Both the position numbers and the translations under genes were made by a program. Under the pieces are notes generated by a model. It had not been told where the DNA came from. It saw only the letters and a program-made list of their open reading frames with translations, and searched no databases. A DNA stretch of 12,717 nucleotides from a virus (lineage: Duplodnaviria; Heunggongvirae; Uroviricota; Caudoviricetes). Shown here piece after piece: positions 1 through 6,968 of the stretch. Where the stretch lies: the IMG/VR virus record IMGVR_UViG_2681813421_000003; one strand, written 5' to 3'. Each line of letters starts with the position of its first letter. Position 1 is the stretch's first letter.

Positions 1-123
1 GAGCTGGTGGAGACGCGGGAACGACTGGTGAGAGACGCTGATGATTTTGTCGCAGTGGCGATCGCTGGTTTCAATCAGATGAATCGTGGTGGCCCGGCAG
101 GAAATGCCTTGGTGATGCACTAA
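1..123 (+). CDS. 3' end of an upstream gene (partial, unknown function)
   Basis: Frame 1 is open from the window edge to TAA at 121-123 (…ELVETRERLVRDADDFVAVAIAGFNQMNRGGPAGNALVMH*). Its position directly upstream of the replication initiator suggests a cII/YdaT-position gene, but there is no recognisable motif. Confidence 0.35.
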   Translation, partial: ELVETRERLVRDADDFVAVAIAGFNQMNRGGPAGNALVMH

Positions 124-146
124 AAGCACGGTGTTCGGAGTTTTTT

Positions 147-1094
147 ATGAGCAGCAAGCTTCATGGTCTTGTCTGGGAAGGGTGTGCCTTCACCGGCATG
201 ATCTTATCCAGGGTGGCAGTTATGGCTCGCCTTGCAGATTACAGCAATGACGAAGGTGTGTCATGGCCTGCAGTGGAGACCATTCGTCGTCAGATTGGGG
301 CAAAGAGTGAATCAACGGTTAAAGCTGCGATAGCAGAACTGGAAAAGAACGGCTGGCTGACGAAGGAGGAACGTAAGGTCGGTGGGCGTAATGAAAGCAA
401 TATCTACCGTCTTAATGTGGAAAAACTCGAAGCAGCAGCAGCGGCGGCGCGTGAGGCATATAAACCGAAAAGAAAAATTAGCCAGGCAAAAAATGACCCG
501 TCAAATATTGCCCCCTCAACGGTTAACCCATCAAATTTTGATGGATCAACCGTTGATAAAAAACAGTCGGATAGGGGGGCGATGGTTGGCCCCGATCCGT
601 CAGTATTAAAACCTGATCCGTCAGATAAAAGATCTTTTCGTCCGGAAGCTTCGCAACCGGACATGCAGACGGCTGAACAGGATTTTTTAACCCGACACCC
701 TGACGCGGTTGTGTTCAGTGCGAAAAAACGCCAGTGGGGTAGCCAGGAAGATTTAGCGTGTGCGCAGTGGATCTGGGGGCGAATCGTGAGTCTTTACGAG
801 CAGGCCGCCAGCGATGATGGCGAGATTTCGCGACCGAAAGAACCCAACTGGACCGCATGGGCCAACGACGTGCGCACAATGCGGATGCTGGATGGCAGAA
901 CTCACAGACAAATTTGTGAAATGTTTGGTCGGGTGCAGCGGGATCCATTTTGGGTAAAAAATATCATGAGTCCGTCAAAGCTTCGCGAAAAATGGGATGA
1001 ACTGGTTATCCGCCTGGGGCGTTCGTCTGTACAGCGTTGTGTGAATCATATTTCTGAGCCGGATACCGAAATTCCGCCGGGATTCAGGGGGTGA
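147..1094 (+). CDS. phage replication initiation / primosomal protein (lambda O-like, DnaT-like), N-terminal helix-turn-helix
   Basis: 315-aa ORF with a GGAG Shine-Dalgarno 6 nt upstream. The N-terminus (…VSWPAVETIRRQIGAKSESTVKAAIAELEKNGWL…) is typical of phage replication-initiator HTH domains. It lies immediately upstream of a DnaC-like loader and contains iteron-like repeats internally, as lambda O does. From memory it resembles Rac YdaU. Confidence 0.8.
   Translation: MSSKLHGLVWEGCAFTGMILSRVAVMARLADYSNDEGVSWPAVETIRRQIGAKSESTVKAAIAELEKNGWLTKEERKVGGRNESNIYRLNVEKLEAAAAAAREAYKPKRKISQAKNDPSNIAPSTVNPSNFDGSTVDKKQSDRGAMVGPDPSVLKPDPSDKRSFRPEASQPDMQTAEQDFLTRHPDAVVFSAKKRQWGSQEDLACAQWIWGRIVSLYEQAASDDGEISRPKEPNWTAWANDVRTMRMLDGRTHRQICEMFGRVQRDPFWVKNIMSPSKLREKWDELVIRLGRSSVQRCVNHISEPDTEIPPGFRG
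495..630. repeat. iteron-like direct repeats, putative origin of replication embedded in the initiator gene
   Basis: Four ~16-bp related repeats: gacccgtcaaatattg (495-510), aacccatcaaattttg (525-540), gatccgtcagtattaa (594-609), gatccgtcagataaaa (615-630), plus the palindrome gatcaaccgttgat (544-557). An A/T-richer stretch follows. The arrangement mirrors ori-lambda inside gene O. Confidence 0.5.
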
Positions 1095-1100
1095 CGTGTC

Positions 1101-1847
1101 ATGAAAAACATTGCGGCAGGTGGTGTTCTTGAGCGTATCCGTAAGCTGGCCCCACAGCATGTAATCGCGCCGTACCGGACAGTGGACGAGTGGCGCGAGT
1201 GGCAACTAGCAGAAGGGCGAAAACGTAGCGAGGAAATCAACCGCCAGAATCGCCAGTTGCGGGTGGAAAAAATCCTGAATCGTTCGGGCATCCAGCCTCT
1301 GCACAGCAAATGCTCGTTTGCGAATTATCAGGTGCAGAATGACGGGCAAAAACACGCGCTGAGCCAGGCAAAATCCATCGCTGACGAACTGATGACCGGG
1401 TGCACGAATTTTGTGTTCAGCGGTAAGCCGGGTACCGGAAAGAACCACCTTGCAGCCGCCATTGGTAATCATCTTCTGGCGAAAGGTCGCAGCGTGATTG
1501 TGATAACGGTGGCTGATGTGATGCTGGCGTTACACAACAGCTACGACAACAAAAACTCAGGCGAAAAATTTTTACAGGGGTTGTGTGATGTTGACCTGCT
1601 TGTCCTGGATGAAATCGGAATGCAGCGGGATACGCGCAACGAGCAGGTCACGCTGAACCAGATAGTCGACCGCAGAACGGCTTCGATGCGCAGTGTCGGA
1701 ATGCTGACAAACCTGAACCACGTAGCGATGAGTACGCTTCTTGGTGAGCGTGTAATGGACCGCATGGTCATGAACGGTGGTCGCTGGGTGAATTTTAACT
1801 GGGAGAGCTGGCGTTCGAATGTCAGGCACCTGAGGGTTGTGAAGTAA
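1101..1847 (+). CDS. DnaC-like replicative helicase loader (AAA+ ATPase)
   Basis: 248 aa with a Walker A motif (FSGKPGTGKNHLAAAIG) and Walker B (DLLVLDEIG). It is colinear with E. coli DnaC from MKN… through …LGERVMDRM…NFNWESWRS. From memory it resembles Rac YdaV. Confidence 0.9.
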   Translation: MKNIAAGGVLERIRKLAPQHVIAPYRTVDEWREWQLAEGRKRSEEINRQNRQLRVEKILNRSGIQPLHSKCSFANYQVQNDGQKHALSQAKSIADELMTGCTNFVFSGKPGTGKNHLAAAIGNHLLAKGRSVIVITVADVMLALHNSYDNKNSGEKFLQGLCDVDLLVLDEIGMQRDTRNEQVTLNQIVDRRTASMRSVGMLTNLNHVAMSTLLGERVMDRMVMNGGRWVNFNWESWRSNVRHLRVVK

Positions 1848-1868
1848 TTTTGTCCGGAGGAAATTTTA

Positions 1869-2630
1869 ATGGAAACCGTTTTTGACGCACTGAAAGCAAT
1901 GGGAAAAGCCACATCCATAGAACTTGCTGCGCGACTTGATATCAGTCGTGAAGAAGTGCTGAACGAACTATGGGAACTGAAAAAGGCTGGTTTCGTTGAT
2001 AAAAGCGCGTACACCTGGCGTGTGGCTGATAACAACGTTCAGCAGGAACAGCCAGCGCAGGCAGAACTGCCGGAAGAAACCTCCACGGCGACAGTAGCGA
2101 AAATCTCAGAGTGCGATTTAACCGCGACGATTGAACAACACGGACCACAAACGGCTGATGAGCTGGCTACATTGTTTGGTACCACATCACGCAAAGTGGC
2201 TTCAACGCTGGCAATGGCAATCAGCAAAGGACGCCTGATTCGTGCAAATCAGGACGGTAAATTTCGTTACTGCATGCCGGGCGATAATTTACCAGCAGAG
2301 CCGAAAGCAGCATCGGTAGCGGAAACTGATGGTAAAGCCTTTCCTCAGCCTGCATGTGTTGCGTTACCAGTACAGGAGGCTGCAACACAGGAAGATATTA
2401 AAACAGAAACTGTGGCGGACATTGTGCAGTCGCTGCCATCGTTTACTGAAACGCGAGCGGATGACCTGGTTTTACCATCGCTGCATATGGCAAACCGCGA
2501 ACTGCGTCGGGCGAAAAGTCATGCCCAGAAGTGGGAACGAGTCTGCGCCGCGCTGCGGGAGCTGAACAAGCACCGGGATATTGTTCGACATATTTTCGAT
2601 TCCTCCAGTCATATTGTGTCGGAAAAGTGA
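1869..2630 (+). CDS. hypothetical phage protein with N-terminal winged-helix-like domain (YdaW-position gene)
   Basis: 253-aa ORF with GGAGG 8 nt upstream. The N-terminal ~45 aa (…[29 protein letters not shown]) look like a wHTH; the rest is acidic and low-complexity. No function can be assigned from sequence. Confidence 0.65.
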
Positions 2631-2646
2631 TTCCTGGGGAGGGCTT

Positions 2647-3069
2647 ATGGCAAAAGTTTTTACACAAGAAGAGCGAGAAAAAATTAAAGGGCAGGTTGTT
2701 GAACTCGTACGCCAGAGTGGGCGTGAGACGTTACGGCAACTGGAAGTCAAGACAGGTGCGACAAGATATCTGATGAGCGTTCTCGCAAGAGAGCTGGTTG
2801 CCAGCGGCGATGTATACAACTCTGGTTACGGGTTATTCCCGTCTGAACAGGCGCGTAAGGACTGGCAAAATGCCCGTAAAAAACTATCAAGGGCAAAGGT
2901 GAAGAAACCGGTTGTGGTTGATCCTGACCTTATCTGGTCATTACCCGACGGAGAAATACGTCGTTACGACAGGCGTCTGAACATAATCTGTCGCGAGTGC
3001 CGGAAGAGTGAGGTTATGCAGCGAGTGCTGGCGTTTTATCAGGGTAATTTTCAGGAGGTGATGGCGTGA
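2647..3069 (+). CDS. hypothetical nin-region-like protein
   Basis: The tracked ORF 2581-3069 was trimmed to the ATG at 2647, which has GGGGAGGG 4 nt upstream. 140 aa, basic, with a C-terminal ICRECRK motif. Its stop overlaps the next gene's start (GTGA). Confidence 0.55.
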   Translation: MAKVFTQEEREKIKGQVVELVRQSGRETLRQLEVKTGATRYLMSVLARELVASGDVYNSGYGLFPSEQARKDWQNARKKLSRAKVKKPVVVDPDLIWSLPDGEIRRYDRRLNIICRECRKSEVMQRVLAFYQGNFQEVMA

Positions 3070-3479
3070 GGGTGAGGGTTTATATCGCTGGTCCGATGAC
3101 CGGGTATAAAAATTTCAACCGTGAGGCGTTCCACAAGGCGGAAGAGGAACTGAAACGGGAAGGGCATACAGTCTTGAACCCGGCAGTACTTCCGGACGGG
3201 CTGACACAGCCACACTACATGGATATCTGCATGGCGATGATTCGTTGCGTGGATGCGATTTACATGCTGCAAGGCTGGCAGCGGTCAGCAGGCGCTAAAG
3301 CGGAACTGGCTCTGGCGGAGAAGCTAGGGCATGTGGTTGTTTTTCAGAGGGGGCGATATGCCGATTCTCTGGTTTCAGGAGGTGTGGGAAAAAGAAATGT
3401 GGGAAGGTCTTGTGATTGTGGCCGAAACAGTTCTTTTATTATGGTCTGTGATTGCGTGTATTTTTATGATTTATTGTGA
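3066..3479 (+). CDS. DUF4406-like / nucleoside 2-deoxyribosyltransferase-like protein
   Basis: GTG start with AGGAGG 8 nt upstream. The N-terminal ~95 aa (VYIAGPMTGYKNFNREAFHKAEEELKREGHTVLNPAVLP…GWQRSAGAKAELALAEKLGHVV) match the family. The reading frame then runs ~40 aa further than expected for this family. Confidence 0.6.
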   Translation: MRVRVYIAGPMTGYKNFNREAFHKAEEELKREGHTVLNPAVLPDGLTQPHYMDICMAMIRCVDAIYMLQGWQRSAGAKAELALAEKLGHVVVFQRGRYADSLVSGGVGKRNVGRSCDCGRNSSFIMVCDCVYFYDLL

Positions 3480-3483
3480 ATGA
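3358..3483 (+). CDS. putative small hydrophobic peptide (41 aa), unannotated short ORF
   Basis: ATG at 3358 with AGAGGGGG 4 nt upstream. Encodes MPILWFQEVWEKEMWEGLVIVAETVLLLWSVIACIFMIYCE, with one predicted transmembrane segment. It overlaps the 3' tail of the DUF4406 ORF in another frame. Below the 60-aa cut-off of the ORF track. Confidence 0.25.
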   Translation: MPILWFQEVWEKEMWEGLVIVAETVLLLWSVIACIFMIYCE

Positions 3484-3510
3484 TGTGAATCTCGCGGTGG
3501 CCACTGAATT

Positions 3511-3553
3511 GCAACCATTACCCCCTGTGATGTAATTGTGGGGTAATGGTTGC
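3511..3553. repeat. perfect 14-bp inverted repeat with 15-nt spacer (hairpin or protein-binding site)
   Basis: gcaaccattacccc (3511-3524) pairs with ggggtaatggttgc (3540-3553). No T-run follows, so it is not a canonical intrinsic terminator. It sits in the intergenic gap upstream of the 3587 gene. Confidence 0.6.
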
Positions 3554-3586
3554 GCAGGCATAGCGACAGGACTGGATGAGAAAAAT

Positions 3587-4009
3587 ATGACGAAATTTAC
3601 CAGAGAGCAATTGATTGCTCATGCTAATGAAAGTGTGAAATCCATGAAATTTGCTGCGCGACAGACCGTGTTTAAGACTTCAAGAGTTGCCATTGAAATG
3701 GATCTTGCGCTTGCCCGTATTGCGCTTGCCTCACTTGAAGCAATGCCAGTTGCATGGTCCTGTGCTCACAATATGGTTTTGTTCAATGCTGAATCTGTTG
3801 CGGCATACGCAAAACACTCAGCCATTGCGCCAAAACCCCTGTACGCTGCGCAACCGGCATCACTTTCACATGAGGAAGAGTTGACAATGCTGGTTAAACA
3901 ATTGGTAAGTCAGTTGAAAAAAGCGAAACCAGATTGCAAATTACCGGATATGGCGATGGGGTATCTGGAGCGGAATGGGCTGATAAGCGCGGAGGATGTT
4001 TTACGATGA
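3587..4009 (+). CDS. hypothetical phage protein
   Basis: The tracked ORF 3536-4009 was trimmed to the ATG at 3587 (MTKFTREQLIAHANE…), because the 3536 start lies inside the inverted repeat. 140 aa, with no recognisable motif. Confidence 0.5.
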   Translation: MTKFTREQLIAHANESVKSMKFAARQTVFKTSRVAIEMDLALARIALASLEAMPVAWSCAHNMVLFNAESVAAYAKHSAIAPKPLYAAQPASLSHEEELTMLVKQLVSQLKKAKPDCKLPDMAMGYLERNGLISAEDVLR

Positions 4010-4089
4010 CCTGGCCGGAGGCATTCACAACGACAGGAATTGCAATGGCGGCAGCACTTGTTGTGTATTCGATTTGCCGCTGGGGATAA
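4006..4089 (+). CDS. putative small hydrophobic peptide (27 aa), translationally coupled
   Basis: ATGA stop/start overlap with the upstream gene. Encodes MTWPEAFTTTGIAMAAALVVYSICRWG. Below the ORF-track cut-off; there is no homology evidence. Confidence 0.2.
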   Translation: MTWPEAFTTTGIAMAAALVVYSICRWG

Positions 4090-4096
4090 AAACGGT

Positions 4097-4124
4097 TTGC
4101 AGTGAAAGGGGAGTTAAGTAGAAT
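4097..4124 (+). promoter_or_regulatory. putative sigma70 promoter of the hok transcript
   Basis: TTGCAG (4097-4102), a 16-nt spacer, then TAGAAT (4119-4124). The predicted start near 4131 places the 5' end exactly at the segment that is complementary to the 3' end of the locus. Confidence 0.4.
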
Positions 4125-4300
4125 TGCTGCGGGTGCTTGAGGCTATCTGCCTCAGGCATGAACACCAAAAGGCAGATAGAGAAAAGCCCCAGTTAACATT
4201 ACGCGTCCTGCAAGACGCTTAACATTAATCTGAGGCTCAATCTATGTCTCACAAATGTAGGTTAGCCTCTTACGTGCCGAAAGGCAAGGAGAAGCAGGCT

Positions 4301-4456
4301 ATGAAGCAGCAAAAGGCGATGTTAATCGCCCTTATCGTCATCTGTTTAACCGTCATAGTGACGGCACTGGTAACGAGGAAAGACCTCTGCGAGGTACGAA
4401 TCCGAACCGGCCAGACGGAGGTCGCTGTCTTCACAGCTTACGAACCTGAGGAGTAA
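4301..4456 (+). CDS. hok: Hok/Gef-family type I toxin (small membrane-depolarising peptide)
   Basis: 51 aa, MKQQKAMLIALIVICLTVIVTALVTRKDLCEVRIRTGQTEVAVFTAYEPEE, with the hallmark transmembrane helix followed by the conserved Cys and the RTG motif. It matches HokD/RelF-type peptides from memory. AAGGAG lies 9 nt upstream. An in-frame upstream ATG at 4244, with a GAGG Shine-Dalgarno, would give a 70-aa mok-like extended product. Confidence 0.85.
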   Translation: MKQQKAMLIALIVICLTVIVTALVTRKDLCEVRIRTGQTEVAVFTAYEPEE

Positions 4457-4463
4457 GAGACCA

Positions 4464-4485
4464 GGCGAGGGAGAAATCCCTCGCC
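4464..4485 (+). other. stable stem-loop with GAAA tetraloop in the hok 3' UTR
   Basis: ggcgaggga (4464-4472), loop gaaa, tccctcgcc (4477-4485): a 9-bp stem directly after the hok stop codon. Confidence 0.6.
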
Positions 4486-4524
4486 ACCTCTGATGTGTCA
4501 GGCATCCTCAACGCACCCGCACTT

Positions 4525-4546
4525 AACCCGCTTCGGCGGGTTTTTC
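4525..4546 (+). terminator. intrinsic terminator (hok 3' end); first copy of a duplicated 20-mer
   Basis: Stem cccgc / gcggg with a ttcg loop (4527-4540), followed by TTTTT. The 20-mer aacccgcttcggcgggtttt (4525-4544) recurs identically at 5372-5391. Confidence 0.7.
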
Positions 4547-4671
4547 GTCGCATAATGAGGTTGTAATTTTAGCTACCATTAGACTATCCTAAGGATCTCA
4601 AACAGATCTATTTTGCATCAAATTTGGTGCATGGCTTTGCCAATAATCGGAAAACAAAAGGACTCATTAGT

Positions 4672-4851
4672 ATGAGCTGCCCACTCAAAAAACACACGCG
4701 GTTGAGTATTCCGCCTCGCGATAAAAGCGTTGTGGCAGTCCCTCGCCCAGCGATTGATGAAAACTGCGCACATCGTGAACAAGTGAAAAATGCTTTTGAT
4801 TTCGGTTTTTCTCGTTATGAGAAAGCCATGGAAGAACTTTCAAAAGTGTAA
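4672..4851 (+). CDS. putative antitoxin partner of the Doc-family toxin (unclassified small protein)
   Basis: 59 aa, from the ATG at 4672 with AAAGGA 9 nt upstream; the tracked ORF begins at 4624 but has no Shine-Dalgarno. It ends 18 nt before the Doc-family gene. Not obviously Phd/YefM-like, so the call rests on position only. Confidence 0.45.
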   Translation: MSCPLKKHTRLSIPPRDKSVVAVPRPAIDENCAHREQVKNAFDFGFSRYEKAMEELSKV

Positions 4852-4869
4852 TGATGGGTATTGTGCTCT

Positions 4870-5355
4870 ATGGCTGAGATTGTTGAAGGAGTGCATTACC
4901 TTACGGTTGATGATCTTGTTGAAATCAATCGTTCCCTAATTGAATTACAGACGCCAGATGAGCCCGTTGGTGTTCTGAGTCCAGATAACTTAAGTTCTTC
5001 TCAGGCCCGTCCCAGCATGGTTCGATGGTATGAACAGACTAATGACATGTTTGTACTGGCATCGGTATTGATTGAAAGTCTGATTCAGAATCATCCGTTT
5101 GCTAATGCGAACAAACGAACAGCTATGATGGCTGGTTACGTCTTCTTGTTGTTGAATGGCTATGAGTTAACAGCACCAGGCGATGAAATCGTGGAAATGG
5201 CAGAGGGACTGGCCTGCAAAACCTATACTCGAGAAGATCTCGAGAACTGGTTGTGTTATTGGTCTCGCGCGTATGACAGCCGGGAATTATGTAAAACAGG
5301 CGCAACTATTGTTTTGTATGAAACTATCAAGCTTAAAATAGAACAGCAAAACTAA
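4870..5355 (+). CDS. Doc/Fic-family (death-on-curing) toxin
   Basis: 161 aa containing HPFANANKRTA, which fits the Doc-type motif HxFx(D/N)(A/G)NKR. Overall size and layout are typical of Doc toxins. Confidence 0.8.
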   Translation: MAEIVEGVHYLTVDDLVEINRSLIELQTPDEPVGVLSPDNLSSSQARPSMVRWYEQTNDMFVLASVLIESLIQNHPFANANKRTAMMAGYVFLLLNGYELTAPGDEIVEMAEGLACKTYTREDLENWLCYWSRAYDSRELCKTGATIVLYETIKLKIEQQN

Positions 5356-5371
5356 AGGTGCTTCCAATGAA

Positions 5372-5398
5372 AACCCGCTTCGGCGGGTTTTGTTTTTT
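5372..5398 (+). terminator. intrinsic terminator after the Doc gene; second copy of the duplicated 20-mer
   Basis: Stem cccgc / gcggg with a ttcg loop (5374-5387), followed by ttttgtttttt. Identical 20-mer to 4525-4544. Confidence 0.7.
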
Positions 5399-5470
5399 CC
5401 TGGCATTCTGGTTTACAATTCGCACGCCAGCCTGAACAACTGGCACCTGCTGCGCCAGCAGAGACAACCG

Positions 5471-5743
5471 ATGGCGCACAAAAACAAATTTCACAATTCT
5501 GATACCGACCTTGCCATCCGGCACGGGCGGCGTTCACACGCATTTAAAACCGACTGGTACCAACACCCACCATGTACTGAAGAACAGGCCGAATGGCTAA
5601 TTCATAACTACCGCAGGCGCGGATACGAGGTTAAGAAAGCCCTCAGCCTCGATTATCGTCACTGGATAATCTATGTCAGGCTCCCTTATTCCGAACGCCC
5701 ACCGCGTCCGTCCCGCACATTCCAGCAACGCATCTGGAGGTAA
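5471..5743 (+). CDS. hypothetical basic protein (orphan ORF at a deletion junction)
   Basis: The tracked ORF 5390-5743 begins inside the terminator, so the first plausible start is the ATG at 5471 (MAHKNKFHNSD…), giving 90 aa. Weak Shine-Dalgarno and no recognisable domain. Confidence 0.35.
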   Translation: MAHKNKFHNSDTDLAIRHGRRSHAFKTDWYQHPPCTEEQAEWLIHNYRRRGYEVKKALSLDYRHWIIYVRLPYSERPPRPSRTFQQRIWR

Positions 5744-5748
5744 CGTGC

Positions 5749-6183
5749 GGGTATTACTTCGACCTGTTCCGGTATCCCAACGGCACTGTTGATGTTTTCC
5801 GTGGCTGGCTGAGCTCACTGGGTAAAACCATTGCCTCAAAAGACGTGATGACCCGCACTGTGAAAATCAGCGGTGTGGGGCGTCCACATCTGGCAGAGGA
5901 AGGCACTGAAACCGTGAGCGTTACCGGGCTGACAGTAGCACCGGCATCTGCCAGTGTAAGAGTGGGAGCAACCACCACGCTGACCTTTACAGTAAAACCT
6001 GACGAAGCCAGTGACAAAGCGATCAGTGTGCATTCGACAGATCCACAGACTGCCACGGTGACCCTGAACGGGCTTGTGGCCACGGTGAAAGGCGTGAAGC
6101 AGGGCAGTGTCAGTATTGTGGGCATGACTTCTGACGGCGATTTTGTGGCAGTGGCTACGGTGGCTGTCAGCGCCGCAGGTTAA
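5749..6183 (+). pseudogene. V: major tail protein V, N-terminally truncated remnant (C-terminal Ig-like/Big_2 part retained)
   Basis: Frame 1 translation …[38 protein letters not shown]… is colinear with lambda gpV (…[39 protein letters not shown]…) through to the C-terminal Ig-like domain. There is no start codon or N-terminal domain; the frame is open from 5635 but similarity begins only around 5750. Confidence 0.7.
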
Positions 6184-6203
6184 CAGGACGATACTCATCA
6201 TTT

Positions 6204-6228
6204 GCCCCGGTTATCCGGGGCTTTTTTG
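6204..6228 (+). terminator. hairpin + T-run between V remnant and G
   Basis: gccccgg ttat ccggggc followed by TTTTTT (6222-6227). Confidence 0.5.
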
Positions 6229-6240
6229 CAGGTGGAGAAC

Positions 6241-6630
6241 ATGATGTTTCTGAAACAGGACACGTTTAATTATGAAAAACAGTCCGTGGTGCTCAGTGAG
6301 CTGTCCGGGCTGCAGAGAATTGAATATCTGACGTTTGTTCAGCAGCGAACGGCAAAGTTTGATGCCGGGGAGGGAGAGCTGCCGGGGGCTGAACGACAGA
6401 TTGCTTTTCTGCGGATGGGGATGGATATCAATGCCTGGCTGGTTTCCCGCTCACTGTGGAATGCGGAACAGTCTCAGGATGTTGAGACGCTTTACGCATC
6501 CGTTATTACAACATGGTCGTATGATGCCCTGGGGGCGGGGGCAGAGATGGTTCTGTCGCTGAGCGGTATGGGAGCCATTGAGAATGCCGGGGATTTGGAG
6601 CATGAGGTGCTGACGCCGGAAAAGTCCTGA
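6241..6630 (+). CDS. G: tail assembly chaperone G
   Basis: MMFLKQDTFNYEKQSVVLSELSGLQRIEYL… aligns with lambda gpG (MFLKTESFEHNGVTVTLSELSALQRIEHL…). The tracked ORF was trimmed to the ATG at 6241; 6244 is an alternative start, with GGAG upstream. Confidence 0.85.
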   Translation: MMFLKQDTFNYEKQSVVLSELSGLQRIEYLTFVQQRTAKFDAGEGELPGAERQIAFLRMGMDINAWLVSRSLWNAEQSQDVETLYASVITTWSYDALGAGAEMVLSLSGMGAIENAGDLEHEVLTPEKS

Positions 6631-6968
6631 CGCGGGAAATGCAGTTTGTCATGCGGCTTGCCCGGGAGTTCCGGCGGGCAGACTGGCGGCGGATGCTGTC
6701 GGAAATGTCGGCCACTGAGCTTGGTGAGTGGGGCGATTATTTCCGGATGCAGAGCTTCAGTGATGTGTGGATGGATGCGCAGTTTGCCTCGCTGAAGGCA
6801 TTGATCGTGAGAATGGTGTCCGGCAGCAGTGATGCTGTGGTGGCTGATTTCAGCCTTTTACCGGAAGAGAACGGGATACCGGAGCGAACGGACGAAGAAC
6901 TGATGCATCTTGGGGAAGGTATTTCCGGAGGTGTGCGTTATGGACCAGATAGCCAACCTGGTCATTGA
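6618..6968 (+). CDS. T: tail assembly chaperone T segment, expressed as G-T fusion by -1 frameshift
   Basis: An ORF in the -1 frame relative to G overlaps the G 3' end with no stop between. A candidate slip site is G GAA AAG at 6618-6624, just before the G stop codon. The arrangement is the conserved lambda G/GT one. Confidence 0.6.
   Translation, partial: GKVLTREMQFVMRLAREFRRADWRRMLSEMSATELGEWGDYFRMQSFSDVWMDAQFASLKALIVRMVSGSSDAVVADFSLLPEENGIPERTDEELMHLGEGISGGVRYGPDSQPGH

Follow-up and report, generated by a model that had tools for sequence, protein, structure and literature searches.

The hok/sok system has been the textbook example of antisense-controlled post-segregational killing since the 1980s–90s, plasmid-borne hok/sok being the form that mediates this effect. 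A prophage-borne relative, hokW–sokW of Sp5, has been characterised experimentally: the HokW protein is toxic and is neutralised by the sokW RNA in a manner partly dependent on both RNase III and Hfq; both RNAs are seen on Northern blots, with HokW itself located in the inner membrane; sokW disappears after treatment with mitomycin C, and HokW then builds up in the inner membrane, an effect that depends on RecA; and deletion of hokW–sokW from Sp5 delays growth arrest and halves phage release (PMC8621323). Here we consider a locus 94% identical to hokW–sokW, found at positions 4097–4546 of a 12,717-nucleotide (nt) stretch of viral DNA (Caudoviricetes; IMG/VR record IMGVR_UViG_2681813421_000003; hereafter ‘the window’). 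We hold with high confidence that it represents an intact and complete type I toxin–antitoxin module of the hok/sok family: the complete form of hokD, and a relative of hokW–mokW–sokW, located in a lambdoid prophage, within its early region. The system itself is an already known one, a textbook example, here with all of its classic RNA control elements present.

Reading along the plus strand, we see these elements in the order promoter, tac, metastable hairpin, ucb, Sok target, mok, hok, 3′ stem-loop, fbi and terminator. An earlier examination of the letters alone (the ‘sequence-only reading’) had proposed a complete hok-type locus at this place; a proposal now borne out by matches to Rfam and Pfam, by RNA folding, by covariation of the tac/fbi pairing and by the annotated hokD and hokW/mokW/sokW relatives, with every sequence feature that it listed found at the coordinates it gave. 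Scanned in full against Rfam, the window gives a single match, to RF01794 (‘sok antitoxin, CssrC’), which scores 121.6 bits (gathering score 59), and aligns the full model (positions 1–157) to plus-strand positions 4131–4306, its consensus structure pairing 4131–4138 with 4184–4190. Despite its ‘sok’ name the model covers the leader strand of the hok mRNA; it sets the likely 5′ end of that RNA at 4131 and does not place Sok. The same is seen for every related locus, RF01794 matching the plus strand each time, so that automatic annotation would assign ‘sok’ to the wrong strand, at a length some 100 nt too great; the antitoxin has to be placed manually on the opposite strand.

The toxin gene, hok, occupies 4301–4456 (plus strand) and is preceded by a Shine–Dalgarno sequence read as AAGGAG at 4286–4291. 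Its 51-codon open reading frame (ORF) encodes MKQQKAMLIALIVICLTVIVTALVTRKDLCEVRIRTGQTEVAVFTAYEPEE, identical to HokD (RelF); the Prokaryotic Genome Annotation Pipeline (PGAP) calls HokD, WP_000813254, in a locus of 100% identity, and the coding sequence differs from that of Escherichia coli K-12 hokD by a single synonymous base, the peptide being the same. Pfam PF01848 (HOK_GEF) matches residues 25–66 of the longer, 70-amino acid (aa) translation discussed below (E = 3e-23; 81.6 bits against a cut-off of 22).

The locus is a common one. With 4097–4560 as a megablast query, matches are found in 4728 of 5426 complete E. coli genomes, at a median of two places per genome. A copy identical over all 464 bp and annotated as hokD is present in five chromosomes of enterotoxigenic E. 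coli (ETEC) type, ETEC O6:H16 among them, and copies of more than 95% identity in thousands of other genomes. A further 102 phage records match, including 933W and VT2-Sakai/Sp5, where the genes are annotated as mokW, hokW and sokW. Positions 1–5774 of the window are 100% identical to the early region of a lambdoid prophage in ETEC O6:H16 strain 2014EL-1346-6, where O-like and DnaC-like replication genes precede the locus and a Doc-family toxin follows it. The value of the locus as a discovery is low, hok/sok being long known and this type of locus already annotated in 933W and experimentally characterised in Sp5; its value for annotation lies in providing a clean and complete reference copy of hokD, the K-12 copy being a 5′-truncated remnant.

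For comparison across the family we drew on 80 Hok-encoding loci, collected from one-genome-per-species contigs with a three-sequence alignment as query and with 5′ ends set by Rfam; the set takes in Escherichia, Shigella, Kluyvera, Photorhabdus, Pantoea, Sodalis, Mixta, Erwinia, Buttiauxella, Enterobacter, Klebsiella and other genera. The predicted promoter of the hok mRNA extends from 4097 to 4124 on the plus strand and has the letters given by the sequence-only reading: a −35 element TTGCAG (4097–4102), a 16-nt spacer and a −10 element TAGAAT (4119–4124). A consensus scan reads the same site as TTTGCA-17-TAGAAT and reports it as the only promoter-like site within 3950–4700. The −10 element ends 6–7 nt ahead of the 5′ end set by Rfam, which, with model position 1 falling on 4131, is also where the sequence-only reading had put the start of the transcript; and a −10-like hexamer stands at this same distance in all lineages surveyed, the sequence around it varying.

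The full-length mRNA is predicted to run for ~416 nt on the plus strand, from 4131/4132 to an intrinsic terminator at 4526–4545 (ACCCGC-UUCG-GCGGGU followed by a U-run), a hairpin that appears in the minimum-energy fold and is retained in K-12 hokD and in the Rac prophage locus MN652886, but not in 933W. A simple promoter and terminator scan missed both this terminator and the Sok promoter, with its weak −10 element. Between the hok stop codon and the terminator, the 3′ untranslated region (UTR) holds a stem-loop at 4464–4485, with a 9-bp stem capped by a GAAA loop; this is the GNRA-capped hairpin that had been pointed out previously, and it is present in all lineages, with compensatory changes in its stem. 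By analogy with R1, where mutagenesis addressed the equivalent structure (PMC9841398), it would block 3′–5′ exonuclease and presumably form the 3′ end of the processed, active mRNA.

The sequence-only reading had been unable to place with confidence a promoter or terminator for the antisense RNA, Sok. This no longer holds: from its equivalence to sokW and sokC, together with its fold, Sok can be placed on the minus strand as a predicted gene of ~59–71 nt (4252→4182), with a promoter whose position is conserved and with a hairpin as terminator. Folding of the 71-nt minus-strand RNA gives −30 kcal/mol (z = −6.1), leaving a single-stranded 5′ tail of 14 nt (4252–4239), complementary to the mok start region across its ATG, followed by the terminator hairpin (4238–4184) and a U-run, the RNA ending in GGGGCUUUU. 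Two annotated relatives agree on its position; sokW of 933W, annotated on the opposite strand, aligns to 4252→4182 of the window, and the overlap of K-12 sokC with the first 9 nt of mokC, applied here as a rule, again gives a 5′ end at 4252.

The predicted Sok promoter lies at 4287→4259, with a −35 element TTGCCT (4287–4282), a 17-nt spacer and a −10 element TAACCT (4264–4259), and is identical in sequence in 933W/Sp5. The primer used to make a promoter-less sokW mutant (YO-421) turns TAGGTTA into CCGGCTC, exactly at this −10 element; the mutation abolished protection and left the hokW construct toxic, with sokW supplied in trans rescuing partly (PMC8621323). Across 51 distinct loci, a promoter-like element in most cases ends 42 nt ahead of the hok ATG, R1-type loci included, where it reads TTGCGC-17-TATCCT.

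From what has been found for hokW–sokW (PMC8621323), the Hok of the window would be expected to kill or arrest cells, and to be neutralised by its antisense RNA. An alternative has to be weighed here: that the locus, whilst intact in sequence, is an inert relic, transcribed little or not at all, or failing to kill when Sok is lost, and carried along by a defective prophage. The K-12 copies are indeed damaged, hokD of the Qin prophage lacking the whole leader, the mok start and sok (similarity to the window begins at 4287), and hokC being adjoined by IS186 with fbi not at its usual place. The window prophage itself seems to be without late genes, its early region joining a truncated tail gene at 5774/5775. 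In addition, chromosomal hokA, hokB and hokC gave no post-segregational killing in earlier tests, according to the summary of these in a preprint (10.1101/2025.08.07.668861), so an intact sequence is no guarantee of that role. Set against this, all regulatory elements of the window locus are present and in register; copies of 100% identity occur in several ETEC genomes, and of more than 95% in thousands of others; the changes that separate relatives in the 3′ stem-loop and in tac/fbi are compensatory, which indicates continued selection on RNA structure; and the 94%-identical hokW–sokW locus is functional (PMC8621323). On balance we consider an inert relic unlikely. If the prophage is as defective as it looks, a role in addiction or defence would, speculatively, be favoured over one in helping lysis.

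We turn now to mok, the reading frame that starts upstream of hok and overlaps it. In the window this spans 4244–4456 on the plus strand, 70 codons in length, starting 57 nt upstream of hok, in frame with it and sharing its stop codon; a Shine–Dalgarno sequence, GAGG (4232–4235), lies within the dcb region, 8 nt before the ATG. The sequence-only reading had described both the frame and its own Shine–Dalgarno sequence, and these stand; it had also called the in-frame arrangement unusual, which does not, mokC/hokC and mokW/hokW being annotated in just this way. Its statement that mok of R1 is out of frame was right (offset 58 nt).

In a survey of 52 distinct hok loci (the window, L001, L004, L005 and L007–L084), mok is in frame with hok in 29, at an offset of 57 nt (rarely 48 or 60), and ends at the hok stop codon. 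It occupies frame +1, as in R1, in 15 (offset 58 nt), ending near or before the hok stop; in the remaining 8 it occupies frame +2 (offset 56 or 59 nt) and ends at a TGA that overlaps the hok ATG (AUGA), a classic arrangement for termination–reinitiation. The position of the mok start relative to hok is constant to within 1–2 nt, then, and the frame takes all three possible values. It also switches inside clades: Rac MN652886 and L016, whose Hok is that of the window or very close to it, carry a one-base insertion that puts mok out of frame (offset 58), and L071, a member of the R1-like clade, has mok in frame. Judged from these sequences, frame relative to hok is no defining feature of mok, and an in-frame mok is a normal feature of a lineage. 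Experiments on R1 found mok translation to be required only up to the hok start; to this the survey adds support from natural variation. A recent survey preprint left Mok unanalysed as hard to call, and among the papers searched we found none with an explicit discussion of frame variation.

With mok in frame, ribosomes that start at mok would also make a 70-aa Hok extended at its N-terminus, and two further readings arise from this. The first, that the 70-aa form with its basic 19-residue extension is a second functional isoform (differing, for example, in membrane insertion, toxicity or timing) as opposed to a by-product, we think improbable; the frame variation over the 52 loci weighs against it more than for it, since frame switching among relatives argues that the extension is not selected as protein. 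The second takes the in-frame ORF at 4244–4456 to be the real and only toxin gene, with no separate mok/hok coupling, and is to our minds more doubtful still. In its favour, gene callers routinely report the 70-aa mok–hok read-through as ‘the toxin’, an identical product being on record from ~1000 contigs and listed at NCBI as ‘Hok family toxin’; and ATG 4244 does have its GAGG 8 nt upstream. However, hok has a strong Shine–Dalgarno sequence and ATG of its own, and the Pfam domain begins only at residue 25 of the 70-aa form, spanning no more than residues 25–66. The same-Hok relatives Rac MN652886 and L016 lie out of frame through a single-base indel, and other loci end mok in AUGA at the hok start (offset 56), so the N-terminal extension does not appear to be conserved as part of the toxin. 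Moreover, the 51-aa HokW ORF is toxic on its own (PMC8621323), and R1, as noted, needs mok translation only as far as hok. A 51-aa Hok coupled to translation of mok is accordingly the arrangement that we retain.

The very 5′ end of the predicted mRNA is formed by the translational activator element, tac (GGGUGCUUGAGG, 4131–4142, plus strand). In the elements as assigned here, tac has three partners: the fold-back inhibitory element, fbi, in the full-length RNA; ucb in the 3′-trimmed RNA; and the neighbouring segment 4149–4159 in the metastable hairpin of the nascent RNA. On the evidence of the fold and of covariation with tac, fbi is placed at 4506–4518 (plus strand; CCUCAA-C-GCACCC, with C4512 bulged). 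The sequence-only reading had reported complementarity between 4128–4142 (TGCGGGTGCTTGAGG) and 4506–4521 (CCTCAACGCACCCGCA), and we find the one to be the reverse complement of the other apart from the single bulged C at 4512. A functional pairing reaching out as far as 4128 we reject, positions 4128–4130 being only 4–6 nt past the −10 element and upstream of the 5′ end set by the family.

Folding of 4131–4546, the check that the sequence-only reading had suggested, gives a minimum-energy structure of −173.7 kcal/mol (z = −7.6; none of 100 shuffles as good) in which 4131–4142 does pair with 4506–4518. Taken by itself the tac/fbi duplex has an energy of −21.5 kcal/mol, a stability equalled or bettered when the 90-nt 3′ UTR is dinucleotide-shuffled in 40 of 2000 cases. 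When partners for the 5′ segment are sought over the entire 12.7-kb window, fbi ranks first and the neighbouring 4149–4159 second.

The decisive evidence is comparative. In almost every locus of the set, the first 12–16 nt find their best partner 40–57 nt past the hok stop codon. At the pair between positions 4 and 37, counted over distinct sequences, we see C-G in 22, U-A in 16, U-G in 2 and no pairing in 1; the paired fraction was reached in 0 of 500 shuffles and the covariation score in 1 of 500. Displacing the 3′ partner by 1–3 columns lowers pairing from 81% to 28–60%. The Sodalis/Mixta clade has a different tac, GGGUGCUCUGGAUC, together with a matching fbi, GAUC..GAGCACCC. Those loci in which tac/fbi pairing is missing are visibly damaged: K-12 hokC (IS186 alongside), L043 (a run of N) and L054 (a frameshifted hok). 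Counts are cleanly comparable for the first six pairs only, the remainder being judged from the duplexes of individual loci, as the bulged base (here C4512) exists in some clades only and muddles a fixed register in the second half of the helix. Cognate tac/3′ UTR duplexes are also more stable than non-cognate ones (mean −21.4 versus −18.4 kcal/mol; Wilcoxon p = 5e-4), a modest difference, and one uninformative for the tac type of the window because GGGUGC pairs with GCGCCC too, through G-U wobbles; we therefore rely on the counts per pair. Judged on these alignments, tac and fbi covary as a pair in ~40 distinct loci, which span several genera of enterobacteria. Such covariation was reportedly described for this family in the 1990s, and is here reproduced on new data. 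That the 5′/3′ complementarity might be a chance match of two G+C-rich segments, without regulatory role, is barely credible: the shuffled 3′ UTRs that pair as stably speak for it, and against it stand the place of the pairing in the fold of the whole RNA, the rank of fbi in the window, the compensatory pairing in nearly all lineages and the disruptions in those loci that do not pair.

Folding also bears on how a tac/fbi-paired RNA might be opened. The candidate partner of tac in the 5′ metastable hairpin is 4149–4159 (GCCUCAGGCAU, plus strand), which pairs with 4133–4143 in the fold of a 3′-shortened RNA; its role is taken from the R1 model, for which the metastable hairpin and the tac, fbi, ucb and dcb elements are summarised in PMC9841398. 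The ucb or anti-Shine–Dalgarno box (AAGCCCCAG, 4184–4192, plus strand) has the mok Shine–Dalgarno region as its partner when the RNA is closed, and tac when it is open. In the fold of the full-length RNA, GAGG 4232–4235 is paired to 4185–4192, three of its four bases with ucb.

The minimum-energy fold of a single truncated RNA, 4131–4500, did not contain the tac/ucb open form, and we therefore compared constrained energies at several cut points: the best structure overall against the best with tac forced onto ucb (4184–4190, the pairing in the Rfam consensus). As long as the RNA includes fbi, the closed form is favoured by 12 kcal/mol (−173.7 versus −161.6). Cutting at 4505 makes the tac/ucb form the structure of lowest energy (−147.4 kcal/mol), and at other cut points it lies 0.7–2.9 kcal/mol above the minimum. 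In the open form the mok start region becomes a separate hairpin, the Sok target, in agreement with the R1 model (PMC9841398). The modelling thus supports a mok Shine–Dalgarno sequence that is held by ucb in the full-length RNA and would be freed through tac/ucb pairing once the 3′ end is trimmed.

Several points weigh against reading the locus as a complete and working module, and are best taken together. As a bare consensus match the hok promoter is not significant (1 found, 0.9 expected by chance); the weight we give it comes from its position relative to the start of the leader, not from the match. The −10 element of Sok agrees with the consensus at 3 of 6 positions. Considered alone, the tac/fbi duplex is only moderately unlikely, with a shuffle frequency of ~0.02. 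Some truncated RNAs, such as that cut at 4500, keep a closed leader at minimum energy, so that thermodynamics supports the switch without amounting to proof of it. The reported behaviour of hokA, hokB and hokC belongs here as well, and for the window locus itself we infer transcription start sites, 3′ processing, Sok expression and toxicity from its elements and its relatives.

From the sequence and fold evidence for each element, and supposing that these behave as in R1, we propose the following scheme. The promoter at 4097–4124 would act constitutively, giving rise to a stable mRNA of ~416 nt from near 4131. During synthesis, the 5′ tac would be kept in its local metastable hairpin; in the finished RNA, tac (4131–4142) would pair with fbi (4506–4518) and ucb (4184–4192) would mask the mok Shine–Dalgarno sequence, so that neither mok nor hok would be translated and Sok would not bind. 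Slow 3′ trimming back to the 4464–4485 stem-loop would then take off fbi and allow tac to pair with ucb; the mok start region would refold as the Sok-target hairpin and mok translation would become possible. Ribosomes on mok (from 4244) would open the hok start (Shine–Dalgarno 4286–4291; ATG 4301), leading to production of the 51-aa, membrane-depolarising Hok. Sok, unstable and ~60–70 nt long, would pair with the trimmed mRNA at the start region of mok, the duplex being destroyed by RNase III. Were Sok synthesis to stop, through loss of the element or induction of the prophage, the pool of stable mRNA would be activated, resulting in killing or lysis.

Around the locus, a second toxin–antitoxin-like pair is found directly downstream of hok (4672–5355), comprising a small ORF (phrog_2208, function unknown) and a Doc/Fic-family toxin (Pfam Fic, E = 7e-12; phrog_577 ‘Doc-like toxin’), for which the annotation of the identical ETEC locus gives ‘death-on-curing family toxin’. 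Upstream, an unannotated 27-codon ORF at 4006–4089 encodes a hydrophobic peptide (MTWPEAFTTTGIAMAAALVVYSICRWG), its ATG overlapping the stop codon of the preceding ORF (ATGA); with amino-acid substitutions it is conserved in 933W (MTWPEAFANVGTVMAVVLVVYSICRWR) and in L007, and it may be a small membrane protein encoded just upstream of the hok promoter. From 5775 onwards, the window continues with the C-terminal part of a major tail protein gene, then the G/T chaperones, tape measure and minor tail genes, Q and the lysis and head genes being skipped at the 5774/5775 junction. None of the 5426 complete E. coli genomes holds a place that covers 80% of window positions 5300–6900; the junction would therefore be either a deletion private to this (defective) prophage or a join made in assembly.

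UACG is the motif for A-to-I editing by TadA. In the window, Tyr47 of Hok is encoded by TAC followed by G (4439–4442), and editing of A4440 would recode it as Y47C; the local hairpin predicted at this codon is weak (−1.7 kcal/mol). According to a preprint, the hokC, hokD and hokE mRNAs are edited from the equivalent tyrosine to cysteine, like hokB Y29C.

The comparative set also yielded some observations of its own. In an Erwinia sp. CGal63 locus (L062, 250–397) and a Kalamiella sp. locus (L078, 362–389), CRISPR-DR4 repeats (Rfam RF01317; CRISPR, clustered regularly interspaced short palindromic repeats) are present ~100 nt upstream of the hok leader, the hok/sok module directly adjoining a CRISPR array. 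Two hok leaders occur within ~600 bp of each other in L040 (Photorhabdus temperata; 556–703 and 1185–1333) and in L079 (an Enterobacteriaceae metagenome-assembled genome; 1–169 and 521–694), pointing to tandem duplication of hok/sok modules; Photorhabdus genomes hold many hok/sok copies. Six short contigs (L015, L025, L032, L067, L068 and L069) carry a hok locus that matches E. coli hokD or R1 hok exactly, in assemblies labelled Veillonella, Acinetobacter, Xanthomonas, Ferruginibacter, Streptomyces and Oscillibacter; most likely these represent enterobacterial or plasmid contamination, or mis-binning.

Finally, the locus may be set beside the known systems one at a time. K-12 hokD (Qin prophage, behind relBE) has the same Hok peptide and the same 3′ UTR, including the 3′ stem-loop, fbi and terminator, but its similarity to the window starts only at position 4287; promoter, tac, ucb, mok start and sok are all absent, whereas the window has the full module. 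The hokW–mokW–sokW locus of 933W/Sp5 is ~94% identical over 4105–4528, with the same in-frame 70-codon mok and 51-codon hok and a Sok body that differs from that of the window in only a few bases. HokW departs from the window Hok at five C-terminal residues (VDYESEK against TAYEPEE, the common Y and E unchanged), and 933W diverges just after fbi (L001, ~1915–1960, compared with window 4519–4546), lacking the terminator hairpin and reading TTGCGG at the −35 element instead.

The hok/sok (parB) locus of R1 has the same elements in the same order, a leader that matches RF01794 and a Sok promoter at the same distance from the hok ATG, although its Hok is only ~43% identical to that of the window. 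The out-of-frame mok of an R1-type plasmid begins 58 nt upstream of hok and terminates 4 nt short of the hok stop, as against a start at 57 nt and in frame here; the R1 tac begins GGCGCUU where the window has GGGUGCUU, with changes in fbi to match. K-12 hokC/mokC/sokC (gef) encodes a Hok of 82% identity, on a leader of 150 nt compared with 170 nt in the window, and has IS186 immediately downstream, its fbi partner not lying at the normal distance; mokC and hokC are nonetheless arranged as their counterparts are in the window, in frame, with a common stop codon and an offset of 57, and sokC overlaps the first 9 nt of mokC just as is predicted for the Sok described here.

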